A DNA stretch of 64,000 nt from Candidatus Omnitrophota bacterium (GTDB lineage Bacteria > Omnitrophota > Gorgyraeia > Gygaellales > Profunditerraquicolaceae), in NCBI GenBank assembly GCA_026387355.1, contig JAPLLW010000012.1:62612-126611 (forward strand), given 5' to 3'. Shown one piece after another: positions 7,703 to 55,749 of this stretch (position 1 is the stretch's first letter; the number at the start of each line of letters is the position of its first letter). The notes beneath the pieces were generated by a model that saw only the letters and a program-made list of their open reading frames with translations, was not told the origin of the DNA and did no database searches. The translations under genes were made by a program, and so were the position numbers.

Positions 7703-9786
7703 GAGTGCTGCAAATATTACCGGAACTTAATGTCGGGGGTGTTGAAACCGGGACACTGGACCTGGCTAAATACTTAGTGCGTCAGGGCCATCATGCAGTA
7801 GTAGTTTCGGCAGGAGGTGTTTTGGTCAAAGATTTAGAGGCACTGGGAGCTGTGCATTATCAATTACCGGTGCATAAGAAATCGCTATTTACCATGTTTA
7901 AGGCTATAGCGCCACTTGCGGAGATTATAAAAAAAGAAAAGATTGATATTGTGCATGCTCGATCGCGAGTTCCTGCCTGGATAGCTTATTTTGCTGCTCG
8001 AAAATGCAAGGTTGTTTTTATAACTACCTGTCATGGTTATTATAAAATGCATCCTTTTAGCTATGTTATGGGCTGGGCAAAAAGAGTAATTGTTTTGAGT
8101 AATATAATTGCCCGACATATGATCGATGATTTTAGCGTGCCGCATGAACGTATAAAGTTAGTCCCGCGAAGTGTAGATCTGGAGAAGTTTAAATATTTGA
8201 GTCCGGATAAGAAGCGGGGTAAAGAATTTAATATCGGTCTTATCGGTAGGATTACTCCTTTAAAGGGCCATCTTTATTTTATCAAGGCTATGGCTAAGGT
8301 GGCTAGAGTCGTGCCTACATTAAAAATCTGGATAGTGGGAGATGCGCCTAGTTCGCGTCAGGCATATAAAGAACAGGTCCAGGTTTTAACCAGGAGATTG
8401 GGACTTGATCATTGCACGGAGTTTCTGGGGACACAAAGGAATATTCCTGAGATCCTTTCGCATCTGGACCTGGTAGTTTTAGCTACCACAACTCATGAAG
8501 CATTCGGCAGGGTGATTATTGAGGCCCAGGCAGCAGGCGTTCCTGTGGTAGCAACCGAAGTAGGTGGTGTTGTAGATATTATTGAGAATGGTCGCACAGG
8601 TTTACTTGTTCCTCCTGCGGATGCGCAAGGGATGGCGGATGCGGTTGTTAAGATATTCAAGGATCCGTCTCTTGCTCGCGATTTTGCTGAGGCAGCGTAT
8701 AAAAAGGTTAAGGATAAATATAATATTGAATTGATGGTCAAGAATACGCTAGCTGTTTACGAAGAGGCCTTGAGTAACTTCAAGCTGCTCATTATAAAGC
8801 TCAGCTCTTTAGGAGATATTATTTTATCTACCGCAAGTTTAAGAGCGATAAGAGAAAGATTCCCGCATCATAAAGTGAGTCTTTTGGTAGGAGAGGAGTC
8901 CAAAGAAGTATTATTCAGATGCCCATATATAGATGAACTTTTAGTAGTTGATCTTAAAGATAAGGATAAGGGGCTAAAGGGTTTGCTAAGCATTGCCCGT
9001 ATTTTAAGAAAAAAGAACTTTGATTTAGTTATTGATCTGCAGAATAACCGCGCAAGCCATATACTTTCCTTTCTTTCTTTATCCATCGATCGCTACGGCT
9101 ATGATAATAAAAAACTAAGTTTCTTACTTAACCATCGGATTAAGGATATTCTGCCGTTAGTTGATCCGGTAGCGCATCAGTTTAGATTGCTTAAGATGTT
9201 GGGGATAGATCTGAAGGATAACCGTTTAGAGTTGTGGCCAGCTAAAGAAGATGAAGATTATGTGGAGAATTTATTAAATACGCAATGGTTAAGTATTGAC
9301 CAGAAGATCATCGGCATAAATATAAGCGCAAGTAAGCGCTGGCTCACTAAGTATTGGGCCAAAGATAATATTGCGCGGTTGTGCGAGGAGCTGGGTTTAC
9401 GAAATATGCGCGTAGTACTTACCGGAACAGCTAGAGATTCCGCGGACGCTAAAGAGATTATCTCTATGATTAAGAATACAAAAATCATAAATGCCTGCGC
9501 TAAAACCAATGTAAATCAGCTAGCTTGTTTAATTAAAAGATGCTCAGTATATATCTCCGCTGATTCTTCACCTTTACATATTGCTGTAGCAGTAAAGGTT
9601 CCTGTAATCGCATTTTTCGGGCCGACTGATCCTAATAGACATATGCCTCCGGCAAGAGAGGCAATAGTTATTAAAAGGGACCTACCGTGCAGCCCGTGTT
9701 ATAAACCCAAATGCAAGGATAAGAAATGCATGAGTTTGATTACAGTTGAAGAAGTTTTAGGGGCGGTAGAAAAGCTATCAAAATGA
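7699..9786 (+). CDS. Bifunctional glycosyltransferase with an N-terminal GT4 domain and a C-terminal GT9 (LPS heptosyltransferase-like) domain
   Basis: The GT4 motif 'EAFGRVIIEAQAAGVPVVATEVGG...GLLVPP' sits in residues ~1-350. From ~355, 'LLIIKLSSLGDIILSTASLRAIRERFPHHKVSLLVGEE' and the C-terminal 'SADSSPLHIAVAVKVPVIAFFGPTDP' are typical of WaaC/WaaF/WaaQ. Confidence 0.75.
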   Translation: MRVLQILPELNVGGVETGTLDLAKYLVRQGHHAVVVSAGGVLVKDLEALGAVHYQLPVHKKSLFTMFKAIAPLAEIIKKEKIDIVHARSRVPAWIAYFAARKCKVVFITTCHGYYKMHPFSYVMGWAKRVIVLSNIIARHMIDDFSVPHERIKLVPRSVDLEKFKYLSPDKKRGKEFNIGLIGRITPLKGHLYFIKAMAKVARVVPTLKIWIVGDAPSSRQAYKEQVQVLTRRLGLDHCTEFLGTQRNIPEILSHLDLVVLATTTHEAFGRVIIEAQAAGVPVVATEVGGVVDIIENGRTGLLVPPADAQGMADAVVKIFKDPSLARDFAEAAYKKVKDKYNIELMVKNTLAVYEEALSNFKLLIIKLSSLGDIILSTASLRAIRERFPHHKVSLLVGEESKEVLFRCPYIDELLVVDLKDKDKGLKGLLSIARILRKKNFDLVIDLQNNRASHILSFLSLSIDRYGYDNKKLSFLLNHRIKDILPLVDPVAHQFRLLKMLGIDLKDNRLELWPAKEDEDYVENLLNTQWLSIDQKIIGINISASKRWLTKYWAKDNIARLCEELGLRNMRVVLTGTARDSADAKEIISMIKNTKIINACAKTNVNQLACLIKRCSVYISADSSPLHIAVAVKVPVIAFFGPTDPNRHMPPAREAIVIKRDLPCSPCYKPKCKDKKCMSLITVEEVLGAVEKLSK

Positions 9787-12770: not shown

Positions 12771-14787
12771 TAAAATCTTATTTATAACATTAAGTAATAT
12801 CGGTGATGTAGTATTGACTTTGCCGGTCCTAGATTTCCTGCGTCAGAATTTTCCCAATGCTTCGATTAGCGTAATTTGCGGCGTTAGGCCAAAAGAGCTG
12901 TTTGTTAATAGCCCGTACATCAATAAGCTTATTGTCTACGATAAGTATGCTCACCTTGCGCAGAAGCTAGAATTATTTAATAATCTAAGAAGAGAAAATT
13001 TTGATTTGATAGTGGATTTACGTAACTCCTTTCTGGGAGCGATTTTGCCAACTAGGTTTAGGACTTCCCCATTCCTAATGATACCTAGGTATATACAACA
13101 TATGAAAGATAGGCATCTTTATAGAGTCAAGAGTTTACGGTTAGGGAATGAATTAGCTAAGCCCGTGGATAAAACTTTTAATATCGCTCGTGCCGATGAG
13201 GAGTTTATTAAAAAGATATTGCAAGAAAATAATATACGTGAAGACGATAGATTGGTAGTAGTTTCTGCCGGAGCCAGGAGTGGTAGCAAGAAATGGCCCA
13301 GGGAAAGATTTGTGCAATTAATTTTTAAGTTAGTAAATGAATTATCTGTGAAAATAATTCTGGTGGGGGATAAAGGAGATGTTGCGTTAAGCCAGTCTAT
13401 TGCTAAGGAGTTAAAAAGTCAAGTCCTGGACTTAAGCGGCAGAACAAACTTAGGTGCATTAGCTGCGCTTATAAAGAAATCTAACCTTTTAATATGTAAT
13501 GATAGTGCAGTAATGCATATTGCTAGCTATTTTGATATTCCGGTTGTAGCTATATTTGGAATTACCGATGATGAAAAATACGCCCCATGGTCACAAGATT
13601 CTTCTGTGGTAAAGAAAGAGATCTTCTGCAGACCGTGCGAAAAGGCTGTATGCAGATTTGGGACTTTAGAATGTCTATCCCGGGTGCAGGTTGACGATGT
13701 CTTTAGAGAGGTAAAAGACAGATTAGAGAAAAAAGTTATAAGTAAAATCCCGCAAGATCTTAAGCGTATATTAATTGTACGTACTGATAGAATCGGAGAT
13801 GTGCTTTTATCTACTCCTGTAATTAAGGCGATTAGAGAGAGATATCCAAATGCTTTTCTTGCGATGATGGTTTCTGCGTATGCCAGGGAGATTATCGAAG
13901 GCAATCCTTATTTAGACCAGGTGATTATTTATGATAAAGACACAAAGCATAAGACTTGGATAAGTTCAATTAAGTTTGCCAAAGATCTTAATAAAAAGAA
14001 GTTTGATCTAGCGCTAGTCTTACATCCGACTAACCGCGTGCATTTAATTACTTTCCTCGCTGGGGTTCCCAGGAGGATAGGGTTAAACCGGAAGTTAGGG
14101 TTTTTGCTTACTAGTAAGTCAACGCATACCAAACAATTCGGGGAAAAGCATGAGTTAGAATATAACCTTGGTTTATTAAATTTTCTAGGGATTAAAGCAG
14201 AAGATAAAAGATTGTATATGCCGATTAAAGAAGAATCTGAAAAGAAGATCGAAGAGATGTTTCAGTTTCAATGTTTATGGTCGAAAGATAAATTATTAGC
14301 AATTCATCCGGCTGCCAGCTGTCCTTCTAAGATTTGGCCGGTAGAACGTTTTGCTGAATTAGCCGAAAAATTAGCGCAAAAATACGGGTTTAAAGTTTTA
14401 ATTGTCGGCGCCCCAAATGAAATGGGGCTTGCCGAAGATTTAATTAAGCGCATACATATACCGGTGATTAATTTCGTAGGTAAGACATCGATTAGTCAAT
14501 TAGCCAGTTTATTAAAAAGATGTACACTTTTTATTTCAAATGATTCAGGCCCGGTGCATATTGCATCAGCCGTAGGTACGCCGGTAATCTCAATTTTCGG
14601 AAGGAATCAGGCAGGCTTGAGTCCTAAGCGTTGGGGGCCAGTGGGCCCTAAAGATAAATTCTTGCATAAAGAGGTTGGGTGCATTAAGTGTTTGGCTCAT
14701 AATTGCAAGAAGGAATTCGCCTGTCTTAAGGCGATAAGCGTTGAGGATGTGGTTGAAGCGGCTAGTGTAATTATTAATCAACATTAG
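12763..14787 (+). CDS. Tandem double GT9 heptosyltransferase-like protein (two complete GT9 domains in one polypeptide)
   Basis: Domain 1 has 'ILFITLSNIGDVVLTLPVLDFLRQNFP' and 'ICNDSAVMHIASYFDIPVVAIFG'. Domain 2 (from ~aa 335) has 'ILIVRTDRIGDVLLSTPVIKAIRERYP' and 'ISNDSGPVHIASAVGTPVISIFG'. Confidence 0.8.
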   Translation: MVNKILFITLSNIGDVVLTLPVLDFLRQNFPNASISVICGVRPKELFVNSPYINKLIVYDKYAHLAQKLELFNNLRRENFDLIVDLRNSFLGAILPTRFRTSPFLMIPRYIQHMKDRHLYRVKSLRLGNELAKPVDKTFNIARADEEFIKKILQENNIREDDRLVVVSAGARSGSKKWPRERFVQLIFKLVNELSVKIILVGDKGDVALSQSIAKELKSQVLDLSGRTNLGALAALIKKSNLLICNDSAVMHIASYFDIPVVAIFGITDDEKYAPWSQDSSVVKKEIFCRPCEKAVCRFGTLECLSRVQVDDVFREVKDRLEKKVISKIPQDLKRILIVRTDRIGDVLLSTPVIKAIRERYPNAFLAMMVSAYAREIIEGNPYLDQVIIYDKDTKHKTWISSIKFAKDLNKKKFDLALVLHPTNRVHLITFLAGVPRRIGLNRKLGFLLTSKSTHTKQFGEKHELEYNLGLLNFLGIKAEDKRLYMPIKEESEKKIEEMFQFQCLWSKDKLLAIHPAASCPSKIWPVERFAELAEKLAQKYGFKVLIVGAPNEMGLAEDLIKRIHIPVINFVGKTSISQLASLLKRCTLFISNDSGPVHIASAVGTPVISIFGRNQAGLSPKRWGPVGPKDKFLHKEVGCIKCLAHNCKKEFACLKAISVEDVVEAASVIINQH

Positions 14788-14937
14788 CGTCTCACCTTGT
14801 CTTGTTTCTCGCAGGGACGCTTGTTTTGCCCTAGCGTGGCAAAACTAAGCTCGGGTCGGCTGCGTCGCTCTCTGACACTAAGGTGACGGAACCATGCCCG
14901 CTCCTTGCCGACACGCCCTGCTCGAAATCAAGTCAAG
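14788..14937 (+). repeat. GC-rich ~150-bp intergenic repeat element, copy A (MITE-like, or a structured RNA), with imperfect terminal inverted repeats
   Basis: It is ~85% identical to 50766-50914. The left end 'CGTCTCACCTTGTCTTGTTTCTCGCAGG' and the right end 'CCTGCTCGAAATCAAGTCAAG' form an imperfect inverted repeat. An internal hairpin reads GTTTTGCC-ctagcgt-GGCAAAAC. It is sharply GC-rich in an AT-rich genome and starts 1 nt after the stop codon. Confidence 0.6.
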
Positions 14938-14999
14938 TTGAGGCGCATGAAATATCTAGTTGATTTAACAGTAAATTATGTTAAAATTATAGCTTCGCC

Positions 15000-30909: not shown

Positions 30910-31290
30910 ATGGAAGAGAATATTAAGGGTAGGGCTATTATTATATTAGCAATATTGACTTTATTGCTTTTTATTCTCAATATAGGTTCGTGCGCTAGTT
31001 CTTTTAGCCAGGGTTCTGCTCGTAGAAAAGAGATGGCTCAACGTATGGACCTGGAAGAAAAGTTTGGTAAGCTTAATCAGGAGAAGGCAGCGGTCATTGA
31101 TAAATTAAAGGTAAAAGATAAAGAGCTGGACGATGAAAAAACAGCGCATATGGTTTCGAAAAAAGCGCTGCTTCAGGAACAGATGATTAGTCAGAGCCTG
31201 AAAGATGATTTACAAAAACTTACTAAGGTTAAGGAATCATTGGAAGCGCAGCTTAATCAAGTATTGTCTGGTAAGAAGGCCAAGAAATGA
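30910..31290 (+). CDS. Small membrane-anchored coiled-coil protein
   Basis: One N-terminal TM helix is followed by a charged heptad-like sequence. No recognisable family. It lies directly downstream of the OmpA-like gene. Confidence 0.45.
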   Translation: MEENIKGRAIIILAILTLLLFILNIGSCASSFSQGSARRKEMAQRMDLEEKFGKLNQEKAAVIDKLKVKDKELDDEKTAHMVSKKALLQEQMISQSLKDDLQKLTKVKESLEAQLNQVLSGKKAKK

Positions 31291-31326
31291 TTTAGGCTTT
31301 ATTAAAAGAACAGCCTAAAGTTCTTT

Positions 31327-31351
31327 AAAAGGGATCACATCCCTTTTTTTA
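31327..31351 (+). terminator. Rho-independent terminator after the coiled-coil ORF
   Basis: The stem AAAAGGGAT / ATCCCTTTT with a cac loop is followed by a T-run. Confidence 0.5.
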
Positions 31352-47978: not shown

Positions 47979-47982
47979 TGAA

Positions 47983-48033
47983 TCTGCCGTGTTTCTCGCT
48001 TAGCGGGTGGCGCCGTGACAGGACCCGCCAGAG
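47983..48033 (+). repeat. Short GC-rich repeat, copy D: a truncated left-TIR-like segment plus the 'GCGGGTGGCGCCGTGACAGGACCCGC' hairpin module
   Basis: 'TCTGCCGTGTTTCTCGC' resembles the left ends of elements A and B. The module GCGGGT-ggcgccgtgacagg-ACCCGC recurs at 50957-50982, at 51014-51038, and in reverse at 55625-55645. Confidence 0.45.
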
Positions 48034-48043
48034 TAATTAATTT

Positions 48044-50755: not shown

Positions 50756-50765
50756 AATATATTTA

Positions 50766-50914
50766 GCGTCTGTCTTGTCTTGTTTCTCGCAGGGACGCTT
50801 GTTTTGCCCCAGCGTGGCAAAACTGCGCTCGGGTCGGCTGCGTCGCTCGTCCGCGTTTCACTCGGACACCGTGCCCGCTCCTTGCCGACACGCCCTGCTC
50901 GAAATCAAGCCAAG
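50766..50914 (+). repeat. GC-rich ~150-bp intergenic repeat element, copy B (paralogue of 14788-14937)
   Basis: About 85% identical to copy A. The left end 'GCGTCTGTCTTGTCTTGTTTCTCGCAGG' and right end 'CCTGCTCGAAATCAAGCCAAG' form an imperfect inverted repeat. It has the same internal GTTTTGCC/GGCAAAAC hairpin and begins ~10 nt after the queA stop. Confidence 0.6.
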
Positions 50915-50956
50915 CCATTCGCTAAGCTTAGGCCATATATAAATAATTAAGGTTTA

Positions 50957-51038
50957 AGCGGGTGACGCGGCGACAGGTCCCCTACTTTTCGAGGCGAATA
51001 GCCGAGAACAAGTAGGGTGGCGACGCGGCAGGACCCGC
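50957..51038 (+). repeat. Palindromic GC-rich segment carrying two divergent copies of the 'GTGACAGGACCCG' module flanking an inner CCTACTT/AAGTAGG stem
   Basis: 'AGCGGGTGACGCGGCGACAGGTCCCC' and 'AGGGTGGCGACGCGGCAGGACCCGC' both resemble the module at 48002-48027. The segment abuts, and may overlap, the tgt start. Confidence 0.4.
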
Positions 51039-51056
51039 TTGAAATTAAGAATAAAT

Positions 51057-55593: not shown

Positions 55594-55600
55594 TATTTAA

Positions 55601-55736
55601 TCCGTTCTTTTCTCGTTTAATTATTTTACGGGTCCTGTCACGGGGCGCTTCTTGCGCTAAGATGCGCTTCGAAGCATCCCCGTGCCACCCGTAAAAAGTA
55701 TAATGTGTACCTGCGAGAAACAAGACAAGGCAGACG
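55601..55736 (+). repeat. GC-rich repeat element, copy C: a long imperfect hairpin (55623-55699) bounded by a degenerate left end and a near-perfect inverted copy of the A/B left TIR at its right end
   Basis: The right end 'CCTGCGAGAAACAAGACAAGGCAGACG' (55710-55736) is the reverse complement of the copy B left end 'CGTCTGTCTTGTCTTGTTTCTCGCAGG' with 1 mismatch. The left end 'TCCGTTCTTTTCTCG' resembles the same TIR. The core hairpin is TTTACGGGT...CACGGGG...GATGC-GCTTCGAAGC-ATC...CCCCGTG...ACCCGTAAA, and it contains the reverse of the GTGACAGGACCCG module. Confidence 0.5.
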
Positions 55737-55749
55737 ATAAATTTATTGG

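Follow-up and report, generated by a model that had tools for sequence, protein, structure and literature searches.

ERIC/IRU elements of enterobacteria are imperfect palindromes of ~127 bp that lie between genes in either orientation and are conserved across fairly distant species. Their copy number varies widely, and their length changes where internal stretches are deleted or inserted at fixed points. By analogy, these elements, the REP/BIME/REPIN repeats and bacterial MITEs are the closest counterparts of the family described here, R1/M2, which was found in Omnitrophota, uncultured bacteria whose cells are often very small and whose genomes are compact. The family is new and its kind is already known. 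Like ERIC/IRU, R1/M2 is intergenic, occurs in either orientation, is conserved across species, varies in copy number, includes length variants and bears signs of selection on a hairpin. However, its sequence is unrelated, it belongs to another phylum, its full form is branched rather than a simple hairpin, and its members form tail-to-tail pairs. With the REP/BIME/REPIN elements of Escherichia coli and Pseudomonas it shares GC-rich, imperfect intergenic palindromes of alternating orientation and compensatory changes that keep the stem; an inverted pair may likewise be the replicating unit, and assemblies break at copies. R1/M2 units nevertheless measure 26-180 nt against 20-40 nt for REP, and their ends are without the conserved GTAG head, GTAG being present only inside the tgt-proximal hairpin. 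The likeness to MITEs such as the Correia/NEMIS elements of Neisseria and the RPEs of Rickettsia lies in a non-coding element of 100-200 nt with long terminal inverted repeats, present in many copies and in deleted variants, placed beside genes and co-transcribed with them. In R1/M2 the arms of the closing helix P1 are ~30 nt long, the elements that show these traits span 75-185 nt, and they hold no ORF. Unlike the RPEs, R1/M2 copies are never inside genes.

The window, a stretch of 64,000 nt from one Omnitrophota contig, is very compact, with ~40% G+C and all ORFs of at least 90 residues on the + strand. Protein identity and the repeat itself both assign the organism to Candidatus Omnitrophota. 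GC skew is positive from position 1 to 64000 and most gaps are shorter than 30 nt; the whole resembles a single long leading-strand run of co-directional genes. The window contains no tRNA or tmRNA genes. Six intergenic gaps exceed 60 nt, and the four of these that are GC-rich (0.44-0.57) hold the repeats. The gene names RuvB, QueH, QueA, TGT, FolD and MetF, assigned earlier from the letters alone, agree with Pfam. R1 is the larger repeat, of ~170 nt, with strong compensatory base changes. M2 is the module that a sequence-only reading of this DNA had described as a second, hairpin-capable cassette. The features are as follows.

14788-14999: locus A, a GC-rich gap with a repeat
14786-14945, + strand: R1 copy A, full-length and branched, between a GT9 heptosyltransferase gene and a deoxyhypusine-synthase-like gene
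47979-48043: locus D, the gap between ruvB and queH
47983-47999, + strand: R1 left-end remnant TCTGCCGTGTTTCTCGC, immediately 3' of the ruvB stop (compare the R1 left end, TCTGCCTTGTCTTGTTTCTCGCAGG)
48002-48027, - strand: M2 'empty' unit, tail-to-tail with the R1 remnant and matched by the covariance model
50756-51038: locus B, the gap between queA and tgt
50758-50935, + strand: R1 copy B, full-length and branched, directly 3' of queA in gene direction
50957-51038, - strand: M2 long hairpin, the tail-to-tail partner of R1 copy B
55594-55749: locus C, the gap between folD and metF
55625-55692, + strand: M2 hairpin of locus C, directly 3' of folD, with a fold z of -8
55707-55747, - strand: R1 left-end fragment adjoining the metF start, tail-to-tail with the M2 hairpin; inverted repeats

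R1 copy A is without an M2 partner, and its C-rich, family-sense strand is the + strand. The same site is also filled in L054, and in L005 and L024 it is filled in the opposite orientation. The heptosyltransferase gene encodes 674 residues and matches GT9 twice (two tandem halves by tblastn); its TAG stop (14785-14787) lies inside the R1 terminus TTAGCG.

All four copies of M2 reported by the sequence-only reading are present, and they are confined to three GC-rich intergenic gaps of the window. At locus D the unit reads, on the - strand, as the left terminus GCGGGTCCTGTC, a 5-nt centre and the right terminus GCCACCCGC. The element on the tgt side consists of two units (50957-50982 and 51014-51038) on either side of a small TTCTCGGC...GCCTCGAA hairpin. 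The copy at locus C had been placed correctly but given too short an extent: it consists of ACGGGTCCTGTC, a 42-nt inner hairpin and then GTGCCACCCGT (55682-55692), a second half that had been overlooked. The 13-mer GTGACAGGACCCG is exact at 48015-48027 (+) and 55629-55641 (-), and diverged copies occur at 51025-51037 (2 mismatches) and 50970-50982 (3 mismatches). At up to 3 mismatches this 13-mer is weakly enriched, with 8 matches against 3.7 expected, a count reached in 1 of 100 shuffles. The 11-mer CGGGTCCTGYC is exact three times, solely at M2 loci, as against 0.53 matches expected at up to 1 mismatch; a count of three was reached in 2 of 100 shuffles. These copy counts for the organism cover the 64-kb window.

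The ability to form a hairpin, also part of the earlier description, holds for two of the three M2 elements. The elements before tgt (82-89 nt) and after folD (73-81 nt) fold very stably, with z of -7.0 and -8.0 (RNA z -6.8), whereas the 26-nt unit before queH (48002-48027) is not significantly stable alone, its DNA folds having -6.1 and -6.2 kcal/mol with z-scores of -0.9 and -1.2. A covariance model was built from 10 hairpins, nine from other genomes and the window copy at locus C. It matches 50954-51042 on the - strand with 32.7 bits (E 1.7e-4) and 47999-48032 on the - strand with 28.8 bits (E 1.4e-3); its 72.4 bits on the locus C hairpin are the score of a seed sequence.

The exact 18-mer at the left end of R1 occurs at 65 loci in species-representative genomes. 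Fifty-nine of these are in Omnitrophota, distributed over 29 assemblies with 1-8 per assembly, and the remaining six are chance matches outside Omnitrophota without the rest of the element. Because this exact 18-mer served to select the loci, part of its conservation, and part of the resemblance between M2 and R1, comes from the selection itself. The sequence-only reading had named absence from related genomes as an outcome that would speak against a dispersed repeat; the 29 Omnitrophota species-representative assemblies show the family to be present in relatives. Several assemblies titled 'uncultured Planctomycetales/Planctomycetia' (L007, L011, L013, L017, L018, L030 and others) carry the same repeat family together with Omnitrophota gene order, and these titles are probably mislabelled. 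Plasmids, phages and viral contigs are without a copy of either module. Comparison with Rfam gave no match at the gathering score for the whole window, nor for the loci at E up to 5-10, where the output was noise alone. Searchable papers linking Omnitrophota with repeats or structured RNA yielded no description of the R1/M2 family.

An alignment of 49 full R1 copies (A2) contains a long closing helix (P1) and hairpins P2 and P4, all with many compensatory changes. Paired cells make up 90.3% of the alignment against 80.6% in shuffles, and both-sided changes are seen at 21 pairs; in a control with the partner slid by 1-3 columns, at most 47.5% are paired. A further helix, P3, clearly covaries inside subfamilies, but MAFFT misaligns it between subfamilies and it was therefore left out of the pair counts. 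P1 includes three conserved pyrimidine-pyrimidine positions (A2 columns 16/173, 21/168 and 30-31/156-157; window 50773, 50778 and 50787-50788). Counted on the side that the search pattern left free, a TC/TC internal loop occurs in 42 of the 49 copies; a T.C mismatch occurs in 46 of 49. The alternating position is C.T in 14 copies and T.C in 12, giving 26 against 0 T.T, and is G-C in one subfamily. On the G-rich strand the pyrimidine positions read as G.A/A.G pairs and tandem GA. That strand also has the better predicted fold in 47 of the 49 copies (-76.7 against -70.4 kcal/mol), and fold energy and the G.A reading favour it, suggestively only, as the acting strand. Outside the poorly aligned P3, G.U and A.C number 75 and 47, with no clear strand bias. 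The M2 internal loop was also compared by eye with a K-turn; the required G.A/A.G positions are missing.

Covariation in three helices, together with internal loops that are strictly kept from species to species, points to selection on a folded single strand. Such selection would exceed what a double-strand cut-and-paste MITE needs, and leaves room for a function at the RNA level; an end-binding transposase would not require internal helices to covary as those of R1/M2 do. These features speak for a reading in which R1/M2 is a functional structured RNA or folded single-stranded DNA kept by selection, not a selfish repeat. Possible roles include a protein-binding module, an insulator at operon boundaries or a stabiliser of mRNA ends. 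M2 would then be the minimal unit, and tail-to-tail pairs would give the same fold to transcripts from either direction. The strong covariation, the conserved loops and alternating position, and the better folding of the G-rich strand all agree with this reading, and so does the filling of the same intergenic sites across genera. That elements last across genera in the folD-metF gap and 3' of queA could be due to function and not to tolerance. The absence of a clear strand bias in G.U against A.C does not fit, and, taken with the distribution of copies considered below, makes a functional element of this sort rather unlikely.

M2 and R1 share their termini. All loci were searched for the M2 halves on the opposite strand, CGGGTCCTG and then GCCACCCG, and the shared ends take the form TTA(G)CGGGTCCTG(Y)C...G(Y)CACCCG(C)TAA or that of a variant, TTAGCGTCTG(Y)C...G(Y)CATCCGCTAA. 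Common to all forms is an inner motif, YYCTCGS...SCTCGRR, which corresponds to a 2x2 TC/TC internal loop. The M2 termini (TTA(G)CGGGTCCTGYC...GYCACCCG(C)TAA) surround full R1 cores in L067 (two copies), L047, L060 and L048. They also surround about fifteen simple hairpins of 75-90 nt, in seven other assemblies, whose interiors differ yet are complementary. A 5-nt centre between these termini is found only in the window, at loci D and B. The tops form a size series, from a branched core of ~120 nt (R1 copies A and B) through a simple hairpin (55625-55692 and 50957-51038) to almost nothing (48002-48027). Every M2 copy bears both family termini, which pair with each other and whose general form is TTA(G)CG(GG)TC(C)TG(Y)C...G(Y)CA(C/T)CCG(C)TAA. 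Hybrid ends occur in L097, with an M2-type left and a standard right end, and in L074, with the reverse, so that the two end types are interchangeable variants of one helix. The hairpin-built covariance model aligns end to end across full R1 copies. From the same termini, the hybrids, the inner motif and the span of the model, it follows that M2 is the basal helix of the family with its top removed or replaced. The 'modular shuffling' of an independent second cassette that had been proposed is not supported, M2 being both termini of the first repeat family, in one fixed place.

Adjacent members of the family within 200 nt form at least 17 pairs that are tail-to-tail, with the left ends outermost, and none that are head-to-head. 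Three of the pairs are those at B, C and D in the window, and other genomes contribute at least 14. Members of the family usually stand in such pairs. At least five lineages are represented, and many pairs are paralogous copies of one composite. M2 in the window is the reduced arm of three tail-to-tail pairs. It lies downstream of and opposite to an R1 left end at all three loci, and at locus C, therefore, it is the entire arrangement that is inverted and not just M2; independent reuse of M2 in both orientations, as first described, does not occur. Most pairs enclose nothing. ORFs are enclosed in L067 (4352-5122) and L043 (3000-4112), and a Pfam search of these found no recognisable domain and no transposase domain.

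Relatives with the same gene order were collected by tblastn of the window proteins against the loci and by a metagenome scan with QueA. Between ruvB and queH, an element is present only in the window and in L079, where the orientations are opposite. Six of the seven same-order relatives (L016, L043, L070, L073, L074 and L097) have no element there, with gaps of 3-27 nt. Among near-identical strains, represented by Logan contigs of <5 kb with exact QueH, the gap is invariant. The closest long contig, L070 (QueA 79%, RuvB 84%), has no family member in 21 kb. R1 follows queA in gene direction in the window, L011, L043, L071 and L073-L076. Between queA and tgt there is zero gap in L072, L077 and L083, and 1-3 kb of unrelated accessory ORFs in other relatives.

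These queA-tgt islets (L043 2100-4400; L016 330-3680; L074 11160-12848; L097 11015-13097; L070 10988-11977) vary among relatives, with differing accessory ORFs that R1 copies often bracket. The ORFs include an HNH endonuclease, an ORF6N-domain protein, a pseudopilin, a flavodoxin-like protein and unknowns.

The interval between folD and metF has two positions at which elements are found. L067 carries, in order, folD, a full R1 with termini TTTTTACGGGTCCTGTC...GCCACCCGTAAAAA, an ORF, an R1 in opposite orientation and metF. The window has an M2 hairpin with the L067 termini in the first position and the R1 left-end fragment in the second. An M2 hairpin also occupies the first position in L079, R1 in opposite orientation occupies the second in L074 and L097, and L083 and L070 have no element. 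The pattern among relatives agrees with a dispensable element, retained at certain sites but gained or lost at others, and not with a regulator of the adjacent gene.

Two of the three M2 loci precede queuosine genes, and this position is the only likeness to the preQ1 riboswitches (classes I-III). A cis-regulatory RNA, whether riboswitch or attenuator, acting on queH, tgt and metF is nevertheless highly improbable, and is already contradicted by synteny: M2 is missing before queH in six of seven same-order relatives and before tgt in several. No preQ1-I, -II or -III model, nor any other in Rfam, matches at E up to 5-10, the orientation is wrong at the third locus, metF, and the 26-nt unit before queH is without a significant fold. 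The same termini lie beside many unrelated housekeeping genes, which argues against the elements being regulators of queuosine or folate genes. The sequence-only reading had considered and set aside a preQ1-type riboswitch, and the lack of an Rfam match, the empty ruvB-queH gaps and the unrelated neighbours all uphold that decision.

Other properties of the family are those of a dispersed repeat. Every copy is intergenic, and relative to co-directional neighbours R1 is in the same orientation in 17 cases and in the opposite orientation in 18. Identity is 85% within a genome and 70% between genomes, and some pairs from different loci reach 96-99%. Internally deleted copies are seen in L038, L066, L035 and L074. 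The preference of the earlier reading for a REP/MITE-type repeat is thus well founded: the element is multi-copy, intergenic, present in both orientations and in internal-deletion variants, and more alike within genomes. Short-read contigs break at R1, and breakage by the repeat may explain why the organism is mostly found on contigs of <5 kb. In the same strain, one short-read contig stops after the first 48 nt of R1 copy B (L001 3062-3102; window 50763-50803).

This behaviour bears on the functional structured RNA or folded DNA introduced above. The even split of orientations against transcription, 17 and 18, is what chance would give, and the same sites are empty in close relatives, L070 having none. 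Sampled assemblies hold from 0 to >8 copies each, and copies within genomes can be near-identical. Counts of promoters and terminators at the loci are not above those of shuffled sequence; no T-run follows the elements and no conserved promoter precedes them. None of the M2 and R1 copies has a terminator-like site, and their tails are not rich in T. A canonical intrinsic terminator is located at 31318-31350, where GGGATCACATCCC and then a T run follow a gene ending at 31290; the genome therefore uses ordinary terminators, unlike the repeat loci.

The neighbourhood of the repeats does not point to an enzyme that could move them. None of transposase, reverse transcriptase or integrase is enriched by Pfam among 145 neighbouring ORFs, and a crude motif scan of all loci (~0.9 Mb) found no HUH/Y1 enzyme. 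REPINs come with a gene for RAYT, a Y1/HUH transposase, typically flanked by the repeats; near R1/M2 copies no such gene was found in those ORFs or that scan. MITEs have a parent insertion sequence with matching ends, and none was seen for R1/M2 among the 59 loci: left and right ends are never more than ~260 nt apart, no transposase lies between such ends, and no version with these termini carries an ORF. The lack of a transposase among the neighbours and in the motif scan also agrees with a functional element. TA flanks many copies; it is part of the palindrome, however, and may equally belong to the stem, and one subfamily is without it.

Other repeated GC-rich modules, GGGACGTTTC...GTGTCCCC and CTGAAGCTTTCAGTCAAGGGTGACGAGGGTCGC, are present in relatives, at 7772-7860 and 17617-17690 in L079 and downstream of R1 in L023, L024 and L053. 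The genomes of L079, L023, L024 and L053 hold several intergenic repeat families.

The accessory ORFs enclosed by some tail-to-tail pairs (L067 4352-5122 and L043 3000-4112), and the differing accessory genes that relatives carry in the queA-tgt and folD-metF gaps, recall sites that bracket exchangeable cassettes. In a reading of this kind R1/M2 would act in the manner of integron attC, with the base as the recombinase-binding part and the top as the variable terminal structure. A conserved paired base, unpaired bases and a top that ranges from a few nucleotides to a branched structure do resemble attC architecture. However, R1/M2 is without the R-box consensus: no GTTRRRY/RYYYAAC core is conserved at the ends, which vary (TTAGCG, TTACGG, ATGGCGG). 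Orientation relative to genes is random rather than fixed as in cassettes, the neighbours are housekeeping genes with no integrase among them, and most pairs enclose nothing. Recombination sites of the attC kind are accordingly an improbable explanation.

M2 is probably the basal module, made up of paired termini and a conserved asymmetric internal loop, of one Omnitrophota family of self-complementary, GC-rich repeats that are dispensable, non-coding and duplicative, of the REP/BIME, ERIC and MITE kind. Under this dispensable-repeat explanation, elements would settle where a very compact genome tolerates them, in a few gaps between operons. Copies may spread with the aid of an enzyme that is encoded elsewhere and recognises the basal helix in its folded state, which would explain a constant base beneath a variable top. 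The factor would recognise that base probably in a folded single strand, which would account for helices that covary around unchanging internal loops. Within genomes, copies may spread or homogenise, and long inverted pairs may lose the top of one arm, giving the series of full R1, hairpin and 'empty' M2. Where they are transcribed, the hairpins may affect mRNA ends.

A more far-reaching possibility, which we hold tentatively, is that R1/M2 is a phylum-wide structured nucleic-acid device with a dedicated, predicted protein partner, and so represents a new mobilisation or recombination system, or a new class of structured RNA, and not one more REP-like repeat. In such a device the basal helix, on whose G-rich strand G.A mismatches recur at regular spacing together with a tandem GA, would serve for recognition, and the top, which varies from nothing through a hairpin to a three-helix core, would be cargo or a functional domain. 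Tail-to-tail pairing, obligatory in this reading, would delimit small exchangeable gene islets lying between core operons.

The analysis removes a tempting lead to a queuosine riboswitch and replaces two shuffled cassettes with one family that forms a size series. It adds a conserved structured repeat family, missing from Rfam, in about thirty species-level assemblies of Omnitrophota. The family breaks short-read assemblies at operon boundaries, and it marks intergenic sites where accessory genes come and go. Its constant base, variable top and strict pairing rule make it a well-defined lead in the search for the enzyme or binding protein by which it is recognised.
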